NCBI GenBank assembly: GCA_963737905.1
Contig: CAVTUQ010000025.1
Location: 128,001 to 192,000, forward strand
Direction of reading: 5' to 3'
Length of the DNA: 64,000 nucleotides
From: an uncultured delta proteobacterium
GTDB lineage: Bacteria > Desulfobacterota > Binatia > UBA9968
Part shown: piece by piece, positions 9,924 through 17,173 of the stretch
How positions within the stretch are numbered: position 1 is the first letter of the stretch
How the letters are laid out: the number at the start of each line of letters is the position of its first letter
Program-made: the position numbers and the translations under genes
Notes under the pieces: generated by a model
Told to the model about the DNA's origin: nothing
What the model saw: the letters and a program-made list of their open reading frames with translations, nothing else
Database searches by the model: none

Positions 9924-11156
9924 ATGGCTTCCCAATACGACCTCACGATTATCGGCGGCGGCATCGTTGGTTTAGCAACGGCTCTAAGAATCCTCGAAGC
10001 CTACCCCCGCACGAAACTATTGATCCTCGAAAAGGAACCCCAACTTGCCCGCCACCAAACCGGCAACAACAGCGGAGTTATTCACTCCGGACTCTATTAC
10101 CGCCCCGGCTCCCTGAAAGCGCGCAGCTGCGTCACCGGGCGCAAAGCGTTGATTGAATTCTGCAACGAACATTCTGTACCCTATGAATTGTGCGGCAAGG
10201 TGGTCGTGGCAACGAGCCAGGAAGAGTTGGCACGTCTTGATGAGCTTCATCGGAGAGGCGTGGCCAATGGGCTGCAAGGCTTGGAAATAATCGGAAAGGA
10301 GCGGCTCAAAGAGCTTGAACCCCATGCCACCGGGATCAAAGGGCTCCGTGTTCCTGAAACCGGTATAATCGACTATAAGAAAGTCGCCGAGGCCTACGCT
10401 AACCAGGTGCGGGCGACGGGCGGTGATATTCGTCTGTCGCAAAGGGTTCTTGGGATTCTCGAAGGTGGCCGAGAAATCGTTTTACAAACCTCTGGCGGCG
10501 ACTATCGGACGAGCTACCTGATCAACTGTTGCGGCCTTCACTCCGATGTCGTCGCTAAGATGATGAAAACTCATGACGCTGCTGGAAACGGCGACGAGCA
10601 CAGAATCATTCCGTTTCGCGGGGAGTATTATAAGATCGCGCCCGAAAGACAGTTTCTGGTTCGCAATCTGATTTACCCAGTGCCGGACCCGACTTTCCCA
10701 TTCTTGGGAGTTCACTTCACCCGTATGGCGAAGGGCGGAGTCGAAGCCGGACCCAACGCGGTCCTCGCCCTCGCGCGCGAAGGCTACCATCATACCGATG
10801 TCAATCTCGGAGATCTGTGGAAGACCGCTTCCTTCAAGGGCTTCTGGGCGATGGCGGGGAAATATTGGCAAACCGGATTCGGCGAGCTTTACCGCTCCCT
10901 CAACAAGCCGGCTTTTGTCCGCGCCCTGCAAAAACTTGTGCCGGAAATCCGCGAAAGCGACCTTGTCCCAGGAGGCGCCGGCGTCCGTGCCCAGGCGGTG
11001 TCAGCCAGCGGCGCGTTGGTGGACGATTTTGTTATCAAAGAAGGCCGCAATGCCATTCACGTGCTCAACGCTCCGTCTCCCGGTGCGACTGCGTCCTTGT
11101 CCATTGGCCTGGCGATCACCCAGATGGCAGCAAAGAATTTTGACTTGAAAAATTGA
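9924..11156 (+). CDS. lhgO: L-2-hydroxyglutarate oxidase
   Basis: IIGGGIVG, HQTGNNSGVIHSGLYY.PGSLKA, IIPFRGEY, PFLGVHFT, AGVRAQA, NAPSPGATASL. Confidence 0.92.
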   Translation: MASQYDLTIIGGGIVGLATALRILEAYPRTKLLILEKEPQLARHQTGNNSGVIHSGLYYRPGSLKARSCVTGRKALIEFCNEHSVPYELCGKVVVATSQEELARLDELHRRGVANGLQGLEIIGKERLKELEPHATGIKGLRVPETGIIDYKKVAEAYANQVRATGGDIRLSQRVLGILEGGREIVLQTSGGDYRTSYLINCCGLHSDVVAKMMKTHDAAGNGDEHRIIPFRGEYYKIAPERQFLVRNLIYPVPDPTFPFLGVHFTRMAKGGVEAGPNAVLALAREGYHHTDVNLGDLWKTASFKGFWAMAGKYWQTGFGELYRSLNKPAFVRALQKLVPEIRESDLVPGGAGVRAQAVSASGALVDDFVIKEGRNAIHVLNAPSPGATASLSIGLAITQMAAKNFDLKN

Positions 11157-11243
11157 TCACGATTCTAAGCCCAGAGAGACAATCTTGATTTCCCCTGCCC
11201 GTCAAATATCGTGATGCACAACTAGAACGGAGGTCGATACTGA

Positions 11244-11771
11244 ATGATTATTGAATACAAAGGGAAAAGACCAAAGATCTCTGCCACGGCTTTCATTGCA
11301 CCCACCGCTGTTTTGATCGGCGACGTTACCATCGGCGACGAAGCAAGCATCTGGTGGGGAGCGGTTTTGAGATCAGATCAAAATGCCAATCCGATCGTCG
11401 TGGGTGACCGCACGAGCGTACAGGACAATTGCGTGATTCACTCCGGCGAAGCCCCAACGATTATTGAAGCGGATTGCACGATCGGCCACGCTGCGATCAT
11501 GGAGGGTCCGCTGGTCAAACGCGGCGCGATTATTGGAATGAATGTGACTCTCCTAGAGAACGTCGAGATCGGCGAAGAGGCTCTTATCGCCGCTGGCAGC
11601 GTCGTCGTTCCCCACACCAAGATTCCACCCCGTGTTCTCGCCGCAGGGAGCCCGGCTAAAGTGAAAAAAGAGCTCACCGGCGAGGCCCTAAACTGGATCA
11701 AAATGGGGTCGTCGACCTATGTAAACCTATGCCGAAGTTATCTCGCCGGCGATTACAAAGTTATTGCCTGA
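11244..11771 (+). CDS. Gamma carbonic anhydrase / PaaY-like hexapeptide-repeat protein
   Basis: FIAPTAVLIGDV, VLRSD, VQDNCVIH, TIGH, AGSPAK. The third Zn-binding His position appears to be Glu (GHAAIMEG). Confidence 0.85.
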   Translation: MIIEYKGKRPKISATAFIAPTAVLIGDVTIGDEASIWWGAVLRSDQNANPIVVGDRTSVQDNCVIHSGEAPTIIEADCTIGHAAIMEGPLVKRGAIIGMNVTLLENVEIGEEALIAAGSVVVPHTKIPPRVLAAGSPAKVKKELTGEALNWIKMGSSTYVNLCRSYLAGDYKVIA

Positions 11772-11851
11772 CTATCCCGGGGAACCATTTCCTGAAAACA
11801 GCCACGTCAACAATTAAGACAAGGCGTTGACAAATAACGACAGAAGCGATA

Positions 11852-11864
11852 CTGGTCAGACCAG
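11852..11864. promoter_or_regulatory. FadR-subfamily operator palindrome overlapping the promoter of the regulator/oxidoreductase operon
   Basis: CTGGTCAGACCAG (TGGT-N3-ACCA core), 17 bp upstream of the regulator ATG and just downstream of TTGACA at 11827-11832. Confidence 0.8.
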
Positions 11865-11881
11865 CAGACAGCTAGACCTAA

Positions 11882-12622
11882 ATGCTCCACGCTATTAAGA
11901 AGACTCGCATTCACGAGGAAGTGGTGACCCAGATTCATGATCTCATCAGAGAGGGTCGACTCAAGGCCGGCGATCAGCTGCCCTCCGAGAGAGAACTTTC
12001 GGAGACATTCAAGGTGAGTCGGACTTCCGTGCGCGAAGCTCTCCGGGCACTGGAAACCAAAGGACTTATTATCAGCCGGACGGGAATGGGAAATTTTGTC
12101 GCCGACTTGCCTATCGAATCTTTAATCGCGCCCCTGGCCAAACTGCTCATCGAAGAAAAGACTGCCCTAGCCGACATTTTTGAACTTCGTAAGCTCATTG
12201 AACCGCACATCGCAGCATTGGCGGCGGAGCGCGCAACCATGAAAGACATTGAGAGAATGAAAAACATCCTGGAAAAGCAGAGTGAAGCGGTCATTCGAGG
12301 GGAAACCGGAGTGGAGGCCGATGCTCAGCTGCATTTTGCTATCGGACAGGCAACTCAAAATCAAGCCCTCGAGAAACTTGTCTCCGGCTTGATGGAGATA
12401 TTAAGCCATAGCCGCGAGGAGTCCCTCCAAACACTCGATCGCAGGAAGGCATCTATAGAATCCCACCGAAAAATTCTCGCTGCCATTGAACAGCACAACG
12501 GGACAAAAGCCCAAGAAGCGATGTTCCACCACATCGAACAGGTCGAAGAAAATGTGCTTTCATCGAGGAAACCACCTACCAATAACAACCATAACCGTTT
12601 AGAAGAGAGGAGTGTTTCATGA
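11882..12622 (+). CDS. FadR/GntR family transcriptional regulator
   Basis: GDQLPSERELSETFKVSRTSVREAL winged HTH plus FCD domain. Stop overlaps the next ATG (ATGA). Confidence 0.93.
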   Translation: MLHAIKKTRIHEEVVTQIHDLIREGRLKAGDQLPSERELSETFKVSRTSVREALRALETKGLIISRTGMGNFVADLPIESLIAPLAKLLIEEKTALADIFELRKLIEPHIAALAAERATMKDIERMKNILEKQSEAVIRGETGVEADAQLHFAIGQATQNQALEKLVSGLMEILSHSREESLQTLDRRKASIESHRKILAAIEQHNGTKAQEAMFHHIEQVEENVLSSRKPPTNNNHNRLEERSVS

Positions 12623-13818
12623 TCAAACGCGTAGAGGTCAACTATCGAGGTATATTTCAGAAGAACCTGGGAAAGAAGATCGGCAGCGACATTGTTATGA
12701 TCGCGAGCCGAATGGGGCAGAGGGCATTCTCCAACGGTCGTTACAGTGACTCGCCGGAGAGAAACGGGATTCCCTGTAAGTACTTCGCCTTCGTTTCTCC
12801 GGATCTTTCAGAGGAGGAACTGGAAGCAGAATGCGGCGCCAAGCTGGAGATCGACGACGCCAACATCTCCGTCGTGCTCGACGATACGATGTGCAAGGGC
12901 GTCGAACCCTGGGGTTGGCACGGCGTGCGGCCGATCAATGAGAGGGTGGTCAAGGACGGCTGTCTGCTCGTGGTCTCCAACAAAAAGCCGGAAGAGCTGC
13001 TAAAATTCATCGGCAAAAAACCTTACAATTACCGGCTGGCGATCCTTAGCGGGGACGCCAGTCTCGCGGGTCTGTGGGTCAATAAGGACGACTTGACCCA
13101 CGAGCGGATCTTGGGCGGAATTGCCGCTGTCGATCCGGCAGTGATCAGCATCGAAGCCGTAGAATCCTACCTTTTGGAAAAGACCAAACAAAAACATCGT
13201 GCAGAGGCGGCGCGGGCGGCTTACGAGTCGCTCAGGCAGGAGGCCAAACCTCCACGGGTGAAGACGGTCACGCCGAACGACGGAATCGTGTGGACGCATG
13301 AGATACCCGTGCTGCCCAAGTGGTTCGAGATGCAAGAGGGCGCCGCGGTTCCGGCGGTCAAGCGTGGATTCGAAATCGGCCCGCGGGGACAATCGAGAAA
13401 TGCCATGTTCAAGCGCGGCACCACCAAGACCCAAAGGCCTGCGGTCCGATTCGATCTCTGCACCAAGTGCACGCTTTGCTGGGTTGAGTGTCCGGATGAA
13501 TGCTTCGATCCGACCAGCGACGGCTACTACGACATCGAGTACCAGTACTGCGTTGGTTGCGGCAAATGCGCCGAGATCTGTCCGGTGAAAGAGTGCATCG
13601 TGATGGTGGATGAGCTGCAATTCGAGGACGACCACAGTCCGTGGGAGCATTGGAAGAAAGATTCCAAAGAATACATTCAATGGGTCGAGGGGAAAAAGGG
13701 CAAAGACCGGGTTTCCTATCCCGTCGTAACCGGCAAGGGCATCACCGTGACCCAGGGAGTAGTGATGCCTGAGGGAAAGATCGTACCCGTCAGAAAGACG
13801 GAGGAGGTTGAAGTATGA
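12619..13818 (+). CDS. 2-oxoacid:ferredoxin oxidoreductase fused gamma/delta subunit (oxalate oxidoreductase delta-like)
   Basis: Gamma-like N-terminal domain plus 2x[4Fe-4S] motifs CTKCTLCWVECP and CVGCGKCAEICP. Lacks the GxGG CoA loop (YRGIFQK). Confidence 0.85.
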   Translation: MIKRVEVNYRGIFQKNLGKKIGSDIVMIASRMGQRAFSNGRYSDSPERNGIPCKYFAFVSPDLSEEELEAECGAKLEIDDANISVVLDDTMCKGVEPWGWHGVRPINERVVKDGCLLVVSNKKPEELLKFIGKKPYNYRLAILSGDASLAGLWVNKDDLTHERILGGIAAVDPAVISIEAVESYLLEKTKQKHRAEAARAAYESLRQEAKPPRVKTVTPNDGIVWTHEIPVLPKWFEMQEGAAVPAVKRGFEIGPRGQSRNAMFKRGTTKTQRPAVRFDLCTKCTLCWVECPDECFDPTSDGYYDIEYQYCVGCGKCAEICPVKECIVMVDELQFEDDHSPWEHWKKDSKEYIQWVEGKKGKDRVSYPVVTGKGITVTQGVVMPEGKIVPVRKTEEVEV

Positions 13819-15056
13819 GTGTCGCAGTCGCACAAACAAAATCAGATCAATCAGGTGTCTACGAGCGTGAAGACCTTCTGAACGGTTGCCAGGCCGTCGC
13901 GCATGGCGTGCGCCTGGCGGACGTGGACGTGATCGCCGCTTATCCGATCCGTCCTTATACCGAGGTGATGGACGCGCTCTCTAAACTGATCGCCGACGGT
14001 CAATTCGACGCCGAGTACATCATCGCGGACAGCGAGCACTCGCAGTTCGAGATCGTCAAGCACGCCAGTTCCGTAAACGCGCGCGCCTTCGGCGGATCGA
14101 GCGGCACAGGTTGGATGTACGGTATGGAAGCGCTGGTCGTTACGGCGACCGACCGTCTCCCGCCTCTTTTCGTAGTGGGCAATCGCGCGCTTGACGATCC
14201 GGGCGCTTTCGGCGTCGAGCACAACGACGCAATGGCGGTCCGGGACATGGGCTGGCTTCTCTGCTGGGTGACCACCCCGCAGGAAGCGCTGGAGCACGTG
14301 CTGATCGGCTACCGTATCGCCGAAGACAAGAAAGTCAGGATGCCGATGGGATTGGCAATGGACGGCGCCTTTCTCACCCACTCGCAGCACATGGTCAAGA
14401 TCCCATCGCCGGAAGCGGCGAAGAGATTTCTCCCGCAGTACGACCTCGCCGAGCGGCGCCTCCATCCCGACAATCCGATCTCCATCGCGCCGCAGGTCAA
14501 CGAGGATTGGGTTATGGAGCTCAGACGCCAGAACTGGGAGGCCGCCAAACGGGCGCGCAGCGTGATCAAGGAAGCCTATAAAGAATTCAACGACATCTTC
14601 GGCGATCGCTACGCTGCGCCCTACTATTTCGACGAGTTCATGACCGACGACGCGGAAGTGGTCCTGATCGGCATCGGCACGGTGGCGGCGCCGGCACGCA
14701 CAGCGGTGCGCCGCATGCGCGAGAAGGGACAAAAAGTAGGTTACGTGAACCTGCGCTGGTTCCGGCCTTTCCCGACAGTTGAGCTGCGGGAGTGCTTGAG
14801 CCGCTTCAAAGCGGTCGGCGTGGTCGATAGGGATTTCGCCCATGGTTCGCCGGACAACGGCGGCATCCTGATGCAAGAGGTCCGTTCTTGCCTCTACCCG
14901 GCCAAGAATCGGCCGGCGATCGTCAATTTCATGGGCGGCCTGGGCGGGCGCGATCTCTCCATCGCAGACGCGCAGAAGATGTACGATATAACGCAACAGG
15001 CGGCCAAGAAGGATTCGATGGACGAATTCGTAACGTGGATCGGTCTCAGGGAGTAA
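13815..15056 (+). CDS. 2-oxoacid:ferredoxin oxidoreductase alpha subunit (oxalate oxidoreductase alpha-like)
   Basis: AVAHGVRLADVDVIAAYPIRPYT, SEHSQ, NRALDDPG, FRPFP, GLGGRD. Confidence 0.9.
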   Translation: MSVAVAQTKSDQSGVYEREDLLNGCQAVAHGVRLADVDVIAAYPIRPYTEVMDALSKLIADGQFDAEYIIADSEHSQFEIVKHASSVNARAFGGSSGTGWMYGMEALVVTATDRLPPLFVVGNRALDDPGAFGVEHNDAMAVRDMGWLLCWVTTPQEALEHVLIGYRIAEDKKVRMPMGLAMDGAFLTHSQHMVKIPSPEAAKRFLPQYDLAERRLHPDNPISIAPQVNEDWVMELRRQNWEAAKRARSVIKEAYKEFNDIFGDRYAAPYYFDEFMTDDAEVVLIGIGTVAAPARTAVRRMREKGQKVGYVNLRWFRPFPTVELRECLSRFKAVGVVDRDFAHGSPDNGGILMQEVRSCLYPAKNRPAIVNFMGGLGGRDLSIADAQKMYDITQQAAKKDSMDEFVTWIGLRE

Positions 15057-15073
15057 AATAGGAGGGAAGGATT

Positions 15074-16069
15074 ATGTCAACTGCACCACAAATCGATTAC
15101 GAGAAGATCAAAGGCGTTCACAAAATTCCGCTGGAAGAGCTTTACACCTCCGGCCACCGCACCTGTCAGGGATGCGAGTCCGCGACGACGATGCGCGGCT
15201 TTATCAAGGTGGCGGGTTCGCGCACGGTCGTCACGGGAGCGACCGGCTGCATGTATGTAGCCAACACCTCGTACCTGACCACGCCCTGGATCGTGCCCTG
15301 GATGCACACCCAGCTCGGCGCCGGTGGCTCGTCCGCCGTGGGCATGGCCGCGGGGCTGCGCGCGCTCAAGCGCAAGGGGAAGATCAAAGACGAGAAGATC
15401 AATGTCATCAACTTCTCCGGCGATCTCGGCGCCGGCGATATGGGAATCGGCGGCATCTCCGGCGCCCTGCAAAGCGATTACGACTTGCTGATCATCATGT
15501 ACGACAACGAATCGGCCGCGAATACCGATATTCAAGCGACGGGTTTGACCACCTATGGGGCGCAGACGACGTTCACGCCTCCAGGCACCAAGCACTCCAT
15601 CATGCAGCGGCGCTGGAAGAAAAATGTTGCCGGCATGCTGGCCGTCGGCCATCCGACCTGCCGCTACGTGGCCACCGCCTGCGCCACCTTTCCGCCCACG
15701 GACTATTTGAACAAGGTCCAAAAGGCGCTCGCTATCGGCGGCCCGACCTTCATCCACACCTACGATCCCTGTCCCAAAGGTTGGGACTATCACCCTCGCT
15801 TCTCAAACGAGCTTGGCGAGTTGGGAATCAAATGCGGCATCTATCCGCTCTACGAAATAGTCGACGGGAACATCATTTACACCTGGGACGCGCGCAAGAC
15901 GGGCAAGGGACGAATTCCGGTGAAAGAATTCCTCACCAAACAGGGCCGCTTCGATCACCTTCAAGAAGAGCACTTCACCCATATCCAGAAGATGGTGGAC
16001 GAGATGTGGGAGGAATGGGAGTTTCCCGGTGTCGCGCCGATAAAGGGCACCTTGAAGGCCAGAATTTAA
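15074..16069 (+). CDS. 2-oxoacid:ferredoxin oxidoreductase beta (TPP-binding) subunit
   Basis: GHRTCQGC, TGCMYVANTSY, GDLG...DNE..ANT TPP motif variant, PCPKGW. Confidence 0.9.
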   Translation: MSTAPQIDYEKIKGVHKIPLEELYTSGHRTCQGCESATTMRGFIKVAGSRTVVTGATGCMYVANTSYLTTPWIVPWMHTQLGAGGSSAVGMAAGLRALKRKGKIKDEKINVINFSGDLGAGDMGIGGISGALQSDYDLLIIMYDNESAANTDIQATGLTTYGAQTTFTPPGTKHSIMQRRWKKNVAGMLAVGHPTCRYVATACATFPPTDYLNKVQKALAIGGPTFIHTYDPCPKGWDYHPRFSNELGELGIKCGIYPLYEIVDGNIIYTWDARKTGKGRIPVKEFLTKQGRFDHLQEEHFTHIQKMVDEMWEEWEFPGVAPIKGTLKARI

Positions 16070-16087
16070 ACGCCACGTTCCCCTGCC

Positions 16088-16117
16088 AAAAGGCCCCAAA
16101 AATGGGGCCTTTTTTTT
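16088..16117 (+). terminator. Rho-independent terminator after the oxidoreductase operon
   Basis: AAAAGGCCCCA-aaaa-TGGGGCC followed by a T run. Confidence 0.88.
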
Positions 16118-16327
16118 GCCGCGAAGAAGAGGTCTATTCGCAGCGACTTGTAACTTGGCCGTCGTTCCAAGTAAAAGGCAACTATCAGCATTCCGCGCCG
16201 AGAGAAGGTCGCATGGCAACGTAATGATTCGGCTGTCATCCGGCCGCGCCTCGCCAGCTGACCTTTTACAGTTTATTCGCTGCCCGCCTGATTGTTTTTT
16301 CTATTACGATCCAATAGCCTACCGGTC

Positions 16328-17173
16328 ATGGGTGCAGTGACCTTCCCCAAAGCAGCGCAACACTCTCAGCGAAGCAGAGCCTCCATTGCTTTTCTCAGTG
16401 CGTCAGTTCTGTTGACCGCGCTGGTATTTCTCTCGTCTTCCGCCCATTCCTCTTGCCGTGACCCCGAGGTAGCGCAGGGCTTTGGATCTCTTGCCTACGC
16501 GGCGAATGTCGATGCGACAATTCAATATTTCGGTCACAATTTTTTTCTCATCACCACCAGCAAGGGAACCCGCATCGTCACCGACCCATTGGGGCCGGGA
16601 TGGTATCCAAACCCGAACGTGGTCGGGGACGTGGTCACCGTCGGGAAAGAGATGTTCAATCACAATGCGGTCCAGATCGTCCGGGGCAATCCGCTGATTC
16701 TCCGCGGGCTCAAGGACTATGGCGCCAACTGGAACACCGTTAGCATGAGTTTCAAAGATACTTTCATCTATAACGTCCCGATTCATCAAAACGCCGAATT
16801 CACCGAGGGCATTCATGGCTCTGCATTCGTTTTCGATCTCGGACCGTTGTGCATCGCCCACTTGGGCGACTTGAGCCAAAAGCTGAACGAGCAACAGATC
16901 AAAGCGTTTGGCAAGGTGGACGTTGCCCTCACACCCATCGGGGGAGGTCGCACGATGGGGCCGGACTTGGCGCGGGAAGTCCTGGCGCAGCTCAAGCCCA
17001 AGATTGCAATTCCCATGCATCACCGCGACAACCCTTATCTGGTCAGACAGTTCACAGCAGGTCTCAAGACAGAGATCATGAAGACCGACACACTAGGGGT
17101 GAGCAAAGGCGCTCTCCCGTCCTCGTTGGAGATCAGAGTTCTTCAGCCTCGCGGTGCGATGCGTTACGAGTGA
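16328..17173 (+). CDS. Exported metallo-beta-lactamase-fold protein with degenerate metal motif
   Basis: Hydrophobic signal, YFGHNFFLI...IVTDP, IAHLGDL, VDVALTPIGG, PKIAIPMH. The HxHxDH position reads KEMFNH. Start uncertain. Confidence 0.75.
   Translation: MGAVTFPKAAQHSQRSRASIAFLSASVLLTALVFLSSSAHSSCRDPEVAQGFGSLAYAANVDATIQYFGHNFFLITTSKGTRIVTDPLGPGWYPNPNVVGDVVTVGKEMFNHNAVQIVRGNPLILRGLKDYGANWNTVSMSFKDTFIYNVPIHQNAEFTEGIHGSAFVFDLGPLCIAHLGDLSQKLNEQQIKAFGKVDVALTPIGGGRTMGPDLAREVLAQLKPKIAIPMHHRDNPYLVRQFTAGLKTEIMKTDTLGVSKGALPSSLEIRVLQPRGAMRYE

Follow-up and report, generated by a model that had tools for sequence, protein, structure and literature searches.

The stretch of DNA analysed here ("the window") comprises 64 kb from an uncultured Binatia genome (contig CAVTUQ010000025.1, positions 128,001 to 192,000), and our subject is a group of four genes at 11827-16117 of the window that would encode a regulator and the three subunits of an enzyme related to oxalate oxidoreductase (OOR). 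We put at about 0.65 the probability that these four genes are one autoregulated operon for a second type of coenzyme A (CoA)-independent oxalate:acceptor oxidoreductase, alongside the OOR known from Moorella thermoacetica.

All four open reading frames (ORFs) are on the plus strand and have the layout of a single transcription unit: they are closely packed, with the first two junctions formed by 4-base overlaps of start and stop codons. The first ORF (11882-12622; called from the ORF and Pfam) encodes a 246 aa regulator of the FadR subfamily of GntR proteins, with a winged helix-turn-helix and an FCD domain. It overlaps at 12619-12622 with the ORF (12619-13818) for a 399 aa protein that combines a gamma subunit (domain III) with a delta subunit carrying two [4Fe-4S] clusters; this call draws on the ORF, Pfam, a match in the PDB and an AlphaFold model. 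The second overlap (13815-13818) leads into the alpha subunit (domains I-II; 413 aa; 13815-15056), with a YPIRP motif and the switch loop RALDDPGAFGVEH, and after a gap of 17 bases comes the beta subunit (331 aa; 15074-16069), which is predicted to hold thiamine pyrophosphate (TPP) and the proximal cluster and bears the motifs GDLG and DNESAANTDIQ (both subunits called from ORF, Pfam and PDB match).

Upstream of the regulator, a -35-like hexamer, TTGACA, can be read on the plus strand at 11827-11832, and the -10 box may be either of two weak candidates, GATACT (spacer of 15 nt) or TACTGG (spacer of 17 nt). The operator-like palindrome TGGTCAGACCA, of the form TGGT-N3-ACCA, lies at 11853-11863 (no strand assigned), 19 nt upstream of the regulator start codon. 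The order of TTGACA, about 15 nt, a GATA-like box and the palindrome is kept in close relatives, with the same distance between TTGACA and palindrome. Downstream of beta, RNA folding gives an intrinsic-terminator-like hairpin followed by a U run on the plus strand (16088-16117, stem 16088-16113), with a stem of 11 pairs and a centroid energy of -18.3 kcal/mol in a fold of 16070-16125, although its z score against shuffles is only -1.86. A consensus scan for promoters and terminators runs against both calls, since it lists neither a complete sigma-70 promoter at the operon nor the hairpin; the hairpin was likely overlooked because some bases of its T run are themselves paired in the stem, and both calls thus rest on reading and folding. 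An Rfam search of 11000-17000 with an E-value threshold returned no match, so no riboswitch was seen there. The earlier note on this DNA, written from the letters alone, had described the same series of palindrome, FadR-type regulator, fused gamma/delta, alpha, beta and terminator; all of these elements are present, and the motifs it quoted (YPIRP, RALDDPGAFGVEH, GDLG and YRGIFQK) stand where it placed them.

The alpha subunit (Pfam POR_N and PFOR_II) and the beta subunit (TPP_enzyme_C) have as their best PDB matches the chains of Moorella OOR (5c4i_A, 3.7e-102, and 5c4i_C, 6.8e-76), with the four-subunit pyruvate:ferredoxin oxidoreductase (PFOR) of Methanosarcina ranking second (9bt4_B, 1e-62, for alpha; 9bt4_C, 3.6e-50, for beta). 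The gamma/delta subunit is also matched best by this enzyme (5c4i_B, 1.7e-14, residues 3-337), and all three 5c4i chains (395, 315 and 314 aa) thereby find a counterpart in the window. The NCBIfam models for OOR rank first as well for each subunit, and the OOR-like identity that the earlier note had proposed is upheld to that extent.

The resemblance extends into the active site, with marked exceptions. Within alpha, the motif A42-YPIRP-Y48 is present and R124-ALDDPGAFGVEH136 aligns with R109-TLDPPGDFGEEH121 of Moorella OOR; the HMMER alignment pairs (window/Moorella) Arg46/Arg31, Arg124/Arg109, Ala131/Asp116, Phe132/Phe117 and Asp128/Pro113. As described in the parts of PMC5020499 covered here, Arg31 belongs to the oxalate-binding site of the Moorella enzyme and Arg109 is a conserved carboxylate-binding arginine, while Arg31 and Asp116 take part in a bait-and-switch mechanism for which Asp116 is important. 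The two arginines, a mark of OOR membership, are thus both kept in the window as Arg46 and Arg124. In beta, G116-DLG119 replaces the Moorella GDGG, and ESAANTDIQ replaces ESYANTGIQ. The earlier note had pointed to the alanine at the Asp116 position and to the GDLG motif; alignment to 5c4i agrees with it on both.

These differences are fixed within the family. The loop RALDDPGAFGVEHND, with Ala at 116 and Asp at 113 (Moorella numbering), is identical in 120/120 of the homologues listed, as against Asp116 in 113/113 loop-containing sequences among the 119 of Moorella type listed (the other six being fragments). The beta motifs GD[LI]G and DNESAANTDIQ occur in 68/68 related loci; two Moorella-type betas read GDGS and DNEQYANTGIQ. 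All four members of a deeper subclade, which comes from the same class as the window (alphas 53-59% identical), have RALDDPGAFG together with DNESYANTDIQ in beta. Across the whole sister clade, then, three changes travel together (Asp116 to Ala and Pro113 to Asp in alpha, Gly145 to Asp, window Asp152, in beta), while the changes from Tyr141 to Ala and from GDGG to GDLG in beta are confined to the crown group. A single Pro-Gly turn lies between positions 113 and 116, and beta-145 comes two residues past the active-site Asn; the acidic function of the switch has therefore probably been relocated in the sister clade rather than lost.

The cysteines of beta fit the expected cluster. Cys31, 34, 59 and 233, which we take to be the four cluster ligands, each align to a cysteine of 5c4i_C, and together with the delta motifs they give the cysteines for three [4Fe-4S] clusters. 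Cys31, 34, 59, 196, 233 and 254 are cysteines in both Moorella-type betas as well; Cys203 is a serine there.

In the second protein, Pfam finds a dicluster ferredoxin domain (Fer4_21, residues 278-329). Its AlphaFold model (built with 19 relatives) has a mean predicted local distance difference test score (pLDDT) of 57.6, with most of the first ~225 residues at 60-96 apart from three short low stretches, and a poor ferredoxin half and tail (delta pLDDT ~30). The best structural matches of the model are the delta chains of 5c4i, 5exd and 5exe (E 3e-13), along with PorC subunits (2raa and 9bt4_E, TMt 0.75-0.76), and because of these matches the model confirms the assignment as a fused gamma/delta subunit. 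Two CxxCxxCxxxCP motifs in delta are invariant in 19/19 relatives. Past residue 337 the chain continues in a C-terminal tail of ~60 aa (residues 338-399, window 13633-13818) with the pattern SPWE..W..D...Y..W.E.KKG..R...P.VTG.G, which is conserved to about residue 375 in 19/19 relatives.

The gamma part bears on the use of CoA. The glycine-rich motif of canonical gamma subunits is the CoA loop; aligned with three such subunits, the gamma domains of the window and of two relatives lack GRGGQG, and the absence of a glycine-rich loop from the window protein, which has Y9-RGIFQK15, had been observed in the earlier note. Nor does this domain give a Pfam POR match even at E <= 10, when a canonical PorC from another genome gives 4e-41. 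Domain III is the CoA-binding domain in PFORs, according to the portion of PMC13768988 covered, and as far as can be read from its gamma domain the window enzyme would be independent of CoA.

A quick IQ-TREE phylogeny of 44 alpha sequences, with Shimodaira-Hasegawa-like approximate likelihood ratio (SH-aLRT) support only, sets the YPIRP enzymes apart as one clade from the YPITP enzymes (98). Within it the Moorella type (represented by P0128 as a stand-in, 511.7 bits to 5c4i_A) and the window family each form one clade (100 and 100), and the window family falls outside the Moorella-type clade, making up its sister group (90) when P0121 and P0125 are counted in.

In the regulator, both domains that define its family are present (GntR, PF00392, 6.2e-22, at the N-terminus as the winged helix-turn-helix; FCD, PF07729, 2.3e-27, at the C-terminus), and its best PDB match is 2di3 (5.6e-25), with PdhR (9jpj) matching too. 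The best NCBIfam families are NanR, LldR, PdhR and GlcC, every score being below the equivalog cut-off, and to this degree the kinship with regulators responsive to small acids that the earlier note had suggested is supported. The regulator is also 39% identical to the GntR protein adjoining a Moorella-type OOR/OxlT locus in Acidobacteriota. LldR and PdhR use operators of the TGGT-N3-ACCA type, and TGGTCAGACCA is the sole match to this pattern within the window. Of the 48 related loci in which the region before the regulator gene is available, 35 show the pattern again at a distance of no more than 160 nt, in Binatia-type, Chloroflexota, Acidobacteriota and Gemmatimonadota genomes, against a chance expectation of ~0.0025 matches per locus by our arithmetic; in two Acidobacteria loci (L071 and L077) it sits between divergent frc and gntR genes. 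A GntR gene precedes the core in 55/80 related loci, and in none of the Vicinamibacterales loci with full flanks. The standard reading of such a layout would be a substrate-released repressor that also regulates its own gene.

The gene neighborhoods of relatives bear on the substrate. We sampled 80 related loci, in which the core of gamma/delta, alpha and beta is kept wherever the contig allows, and scanned by tblastn the 64 with at least 4 kb of flank. Among these 64, the neighbors include formyl-CoA transferase (Frc; 10 loci), a TPP enzyme of the family of oxalyl-CoA decarboxylase (Oxc) and 2-hydroxyacyl-CoA lyase (HACL; 11), an ADP-forming acyl-CoA ligase (6), an OxlT-like carrier (7) and TctA (17); at least one of Frc, the Oxc-like enzyme and OxlT is found in 18/64. 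Frc exceeds the TIGR03253 cut-off of 504.2 in 3/3 tested (693, 683.5 and 675 bits), and OxlT exceeds the TIGR04259 cut-off of 335 in 4/5 tested, the remaining one (L037, 321.5) being on a short ORF. In two loci of the deeper subclade, a single strand reads gntR, gamma/delta, alpha, beta and oxlT; the OxlT scores there (514.5 and 468.2 bits) exceed the same cut-off. Two Moorella-type Acidobacteriota loci with alphas above the OOR cut-off also carry OxlT and GntR. Since relatives within the clade adjoin Frc, OxlT and Oxc/HACL-type genes, oxalate appears to be the most economical substrate for the clade.

In eight Binatia-type loci (L002, L007, L014, L017, L022, L041, L046 and L074), the Oxc/HACL-family TPP enzyme and then Frc follow beta on its 3' side and on the same strand, and six of the eight (all except L017 and L074) continue with the ADP-forming acyl-CoA ligase. 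The Binatia-type TPP enzyme lies below the Oxc cut-offs (236.9 vs 557) and its best PDB matches are 2-hydroxyacyl-CoA lyases; by sequence it may be either an oxalyl-CoA decarboxylase or a 2-hydroxyacyl-CoA lyase. In the window genome itself, Frc, OxlT and the Oxc-like enzyme have neither a match above cut-off nor a close match. Family III CoA-transferases and TPP enzymes are numerous in that genome (G000): the formyl-CoA transferase model has 39 matches there, not one of which exceeds the cut-off, and the Oxc-like TPP enzyme has 29; one pair stands side by side (C12, ~98.6-102.1 kb).

The two Acidobacteriota loci of Moorella type (L135, G161:C17; L136, G211:C236) are a separate observation. 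Each has an alpha (589.7 and 584.9 bits) of the Moorella OOR type with its beta, preceded not by gamma/delta but by a GltD-like NAD(P)-binding Fe-S protein of 610-614 aa (PRK12771, 504 and 494 bits), and they may represent an NAD(P)-linked OOR. L135 has as further neighbors a CDC48-type AAA ATPase, GntR, a PanE-like reductase, a FadD7-like ligase and OxlT, of which only the AAA ATPase is annotated in L136. At one Vicinamibacterales locus (L055), a molybdopterin oxidoreductase gene (10737-12818, minus strand) adjoins beta; among NCBIfam models it matches formate dehydrogenase alpha best, with a score (234 bits) that falls well short of the cut-off of 666.

Within the window, the operon is flanked by housekeeping genes: B12-dependent ribonucleotide reductase, Mla, LhgO and gamma-carbonic anhydrase upstream, and a metallo-beta-lactamase (MBL)-fold protein, an amidotransferase, Fpg, RsmA and TsaD downstream. 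The two genes just upstream (9924-11771), for an L-2-hydroxyglutarate oxidase (LhgO, 539.7 bits vs a cut-off of 299) and a gamma-carbonic-anhydrase-like hexapeptide protein, were considered as operon members and rejected: they recur in only 2/80 and 3/80 related loci, respectively, and thus appear to be neighbors by descent, outside the unit.

CdhC finds no match in the window genome, which carries two COX1 genes; to the extent that a genome 87% complete can tell, the host is not an acetogen, in keeping with the earlier note. The family is widespread: more than 120 clusters at 79% identity or more were found, carrying the source label "pyruvate ferredoxin oxidoreductase" everywhere, and 205 confirmed stretches in species genomes come from Binatia, Acidobacteriota, Chloroflexota, Gemmatimonadota and other phyla. 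The gene is present at E <= 1e-120 in 15/201 sampled genomes of the window's class, including 10/13 other genomes of its own family; among 401 sampled Acidobacteriota, two have the Moorella type and about nine the window type. Homologues 75-97% identical occur in metagenome-assembled genomes (MAGs) labelled with many phyla. Alpha copies 94-96% identical lie on short contigs (L009, L013, L016 and others) of MAGs labelled Nitrospira, Udaeobacter and Pseudolabrys, and these may reflect either recent transfer or binning errors.

Taken together, the operon could work as follows. A FadR-type repressor would bind the TGGTCAGACCA palindrome, which overlaps the promoter, until oxalate or a small acid closely akin to it brings about its release. 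The (gamma/delta)-alpha-beta enzyme would hold oxalate between Arg46 and Arg124 (Arg31 and Arg109 of Moorella) and form an oxalyl-TPP adduct; two CO2 would be released, and two electrons would pass via three [4Fe-4S] clusters to a ferredoxin-like acceptor. The electrostatic switch would be built differently rather than be missing, with one acid at alpha-113, across the Pro-Gly turn from position 116, and another at beta-145, by the active-site Asn. Of this scheme, we infer what the substrate is, that CoA is not needed, how the repressor acts and what the relocated Asp residues do.

Several observations weigh against it. The NCBIfam OOR models rank first, but their scores are below the cut-offs for alpha (OxalOxredalpha, 387.6 vs 500), for beta (OxalOxredbeta, 327.3 vs 590) and for delta (83.5 vs 230). 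The switch-loop Asp116, a further mark of OOR membership, is replaced by Ala131, and the proposed relocation of its function is read from sequence position only. No oxalate gene lies near the core in 46 of the 64 flanked loci or in the window itself, and the Frc-bearing loci amount to only about three independent arrangements, since many of these loci are from close relatives. The window genome, 87% complete, has neither Frc nor OxlT above cut-off, so no oxalate uptake route was identified in it. OxlT is, moreover, an oxalate/formate exchanger, and an enzyme that yields only CO2 supplies no formate, which makes a poor fit. Expression counts in favor of the scheme, with a caveat: parts of the stretch were found in 20 public runs (12 studies), of which six are RNA libraries, and in 4/4 examined soil RNA runs (from four studies) contigs 90-100% alike cover ~11.9-16.07 kb, but such contigs are no proof of transcription since DNA can occur in RNA libraries. 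In these four runs no contig reaches past ~16107, to which we give no weight because transcript ends are not visible from contigs. The titles and abstract openings of the OOR papers listed concern the Moorella enzyme only and report no assay of the window clade, of which the primary OOR papers may hold an earlier mention. Our literature search found no paper joining Binatia with oxalate, nor OOR with the switch loop.

The same features have been read differently. The earlier note took the changed loop as a sign of a substrate other than oxalate and called the enzyme the best candidate for new chemistry in the window. In that case, the clade would be a CoA-independent oxidoreductase for an oxalate relative (glyoxylate, oxamate, mesoxalate or another small 2-oxoacid), its rebuilt loop reflecting a different substrate or chemistry. 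The loop difference is indeed invariant and clade-specific among the sequences listed, it is accompanied by further invariant changes beside the TPP site (GD[LI]G and SAANTD), and the scores fall under the OOR equivalog cut-offs; the TPP enzyme on the 3' side of beta in the Binatia-type loci also matches 2-hydroxyacyl-CoA lyases, so that formyl-CoA chemistry on other C2 acids is conceivable, and the nearest families of the regulator sense lactate, glycolate, pyruvate or sialic acid. Yet both arginines that would hold a dicarboxylate are kept, the linked genes are oxalate-specific equivalogs (Frc and OxlT above their curated cut-offs, in relatives from the same clade), the Moorella-type loci have the same kinds of neighbors, and no glyoxylate- or oxamate-specific gene recurs in the flanks examined. 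Add to this the palindrome between divergent frc and gntR in two loci and the Asp residues at alpha-113 and beta-145 wherever Asp116 is absent, and a new substrate is unsupported by the loop. We regard it as unlikely, and as less likely than oxalate with a rebuilt switch, and "new chemistry" as too strong a term: an uncharacterised variant of OOR fits better.

Databases would have the enzyme be an ordinary CoA-dependent pyruvate or 2-oxoisovalerate:ferredoxin oxidoreductase, in line with the source names of the homologues, and the PorA and PorB models do score second (327.6 and 262.6 bits). These scores are, though, under the respective cut-offs of 550 and 405, and the YPIRP clade is split from the YPITP enzymes with a support of 98. 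Because the Thr of YPITP (Arg in the window alpha) and a canonical gamma subunit with Pfam POR and GRGGQG are both missing, the window enzyme does not appear to be a PFOR, and we think this explanation very improbable. Scarcely credible to us is an enzyme running mainly in reverse or for redox balance, making oxalate from CO2 and reduced ferredoxin or serving as an electron sink rather than in catabolism. OxlT-type carriers can export, and some 2-oxoacid:ferredoxin oxidoreductases are reversible (in the portion of PMC13768988 covered); still, the linkage to catabolic frc and an oxc-like gene, and a repressor-type layout that would be typical of substrate-induced catabolism, speak against such a role, and nothing in the analysis points to synthesis.

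An uncharacterised, second-type OOR with a rebuilt switch loop therefore remains the reading that fits the evidence, and it can be carried further, albeit tentatively and with more doubt than conviction. The enzyme could be mechanistically distinct, the aspartate having moved from alpha-116 to alpha-113 and/or beta-145, and the delta tail could perhaps be protective in the manner of domain VII of the Desulfovibrio enzyme, allowing low-potential oxidation of oxalate by TPP and Fe-S clusters in oxygen-respiring soil bacteria, which would be a major uncounted sink for soil oxalate; or else the pocket could favor another small 2-oxoacid.

The enzyme encoded in the window belongs to a large, highly conserved and uncharacterised sister family of Moorella OOR that is common in soil bacteria. 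In the literature covered, the OOR studied so far is a single one from an anaerobic acetogen, and the sister family is far more widespread. Should the family oxidise oxalate, it goes unseen in surveys of oxalate turnover based on frc/oxc alone or on KEGG's OOR. For the bait-and-switch mechanism the family is also a "natural experiment", in which the residue regarded as the driver of the second decarboxylation has been replaced and two other acids appear.

Compared with known systems, the window regulator is like LldR, PdhR, GlcC and NanR in its GntR winged helix-turn-helix and FCD domain, and differs from them in being tied to an OOR-type operon and in scoring below their cut-offs. In the folds of alpha and beta, the motifs for TPP and clusters and the ferredoxin domain of delta, the enzyme agrees with PorABDG/VorABDG (9BT4); it departs from them in having Arg for the YPITP Thr, in its gamma domain, which is joined to delta and has no glycine-rich motif, and in its place outside the YPITP clade. 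The closest is Moorella thermoacetica OOR (5C4I, 5EXD, 5EXE; NF045790-NF045792), the best sequence and fold match for each window subunit. In common are the three-subunit layout with a fused gamma/delta, the YPIRP Arg31, Arg109, the Phe after the switch position, Asn143-beta, the eight delta cysteines in two CxxCxxCxxxCP motifs, and a gamma domain without GRGGQG. The Moorella enzyme differs in Asp116 and Pro113 of alpha (Ala and Asp in the window) and in Gly145, Tyr141 and GDGG of beta (Asp, Ala and GDLG); its delta has no tail, the chain ending where window residue 337 aligns, and its host is an anaerobic acetogen, while the hosts of the window family have terminal oxidases and no CdhC match. 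The Moorella-type alphas from Acidobacteriota (589.7 and 584.9 bits) exceed the OOR cut-off of 500, unlike the window alpha. Judged by its sequence, then, the window enzyme is like Moorella OOR in every readable feature and yet departs from it in Asp116, in the equivalog cut-offs and in its place in the tree.

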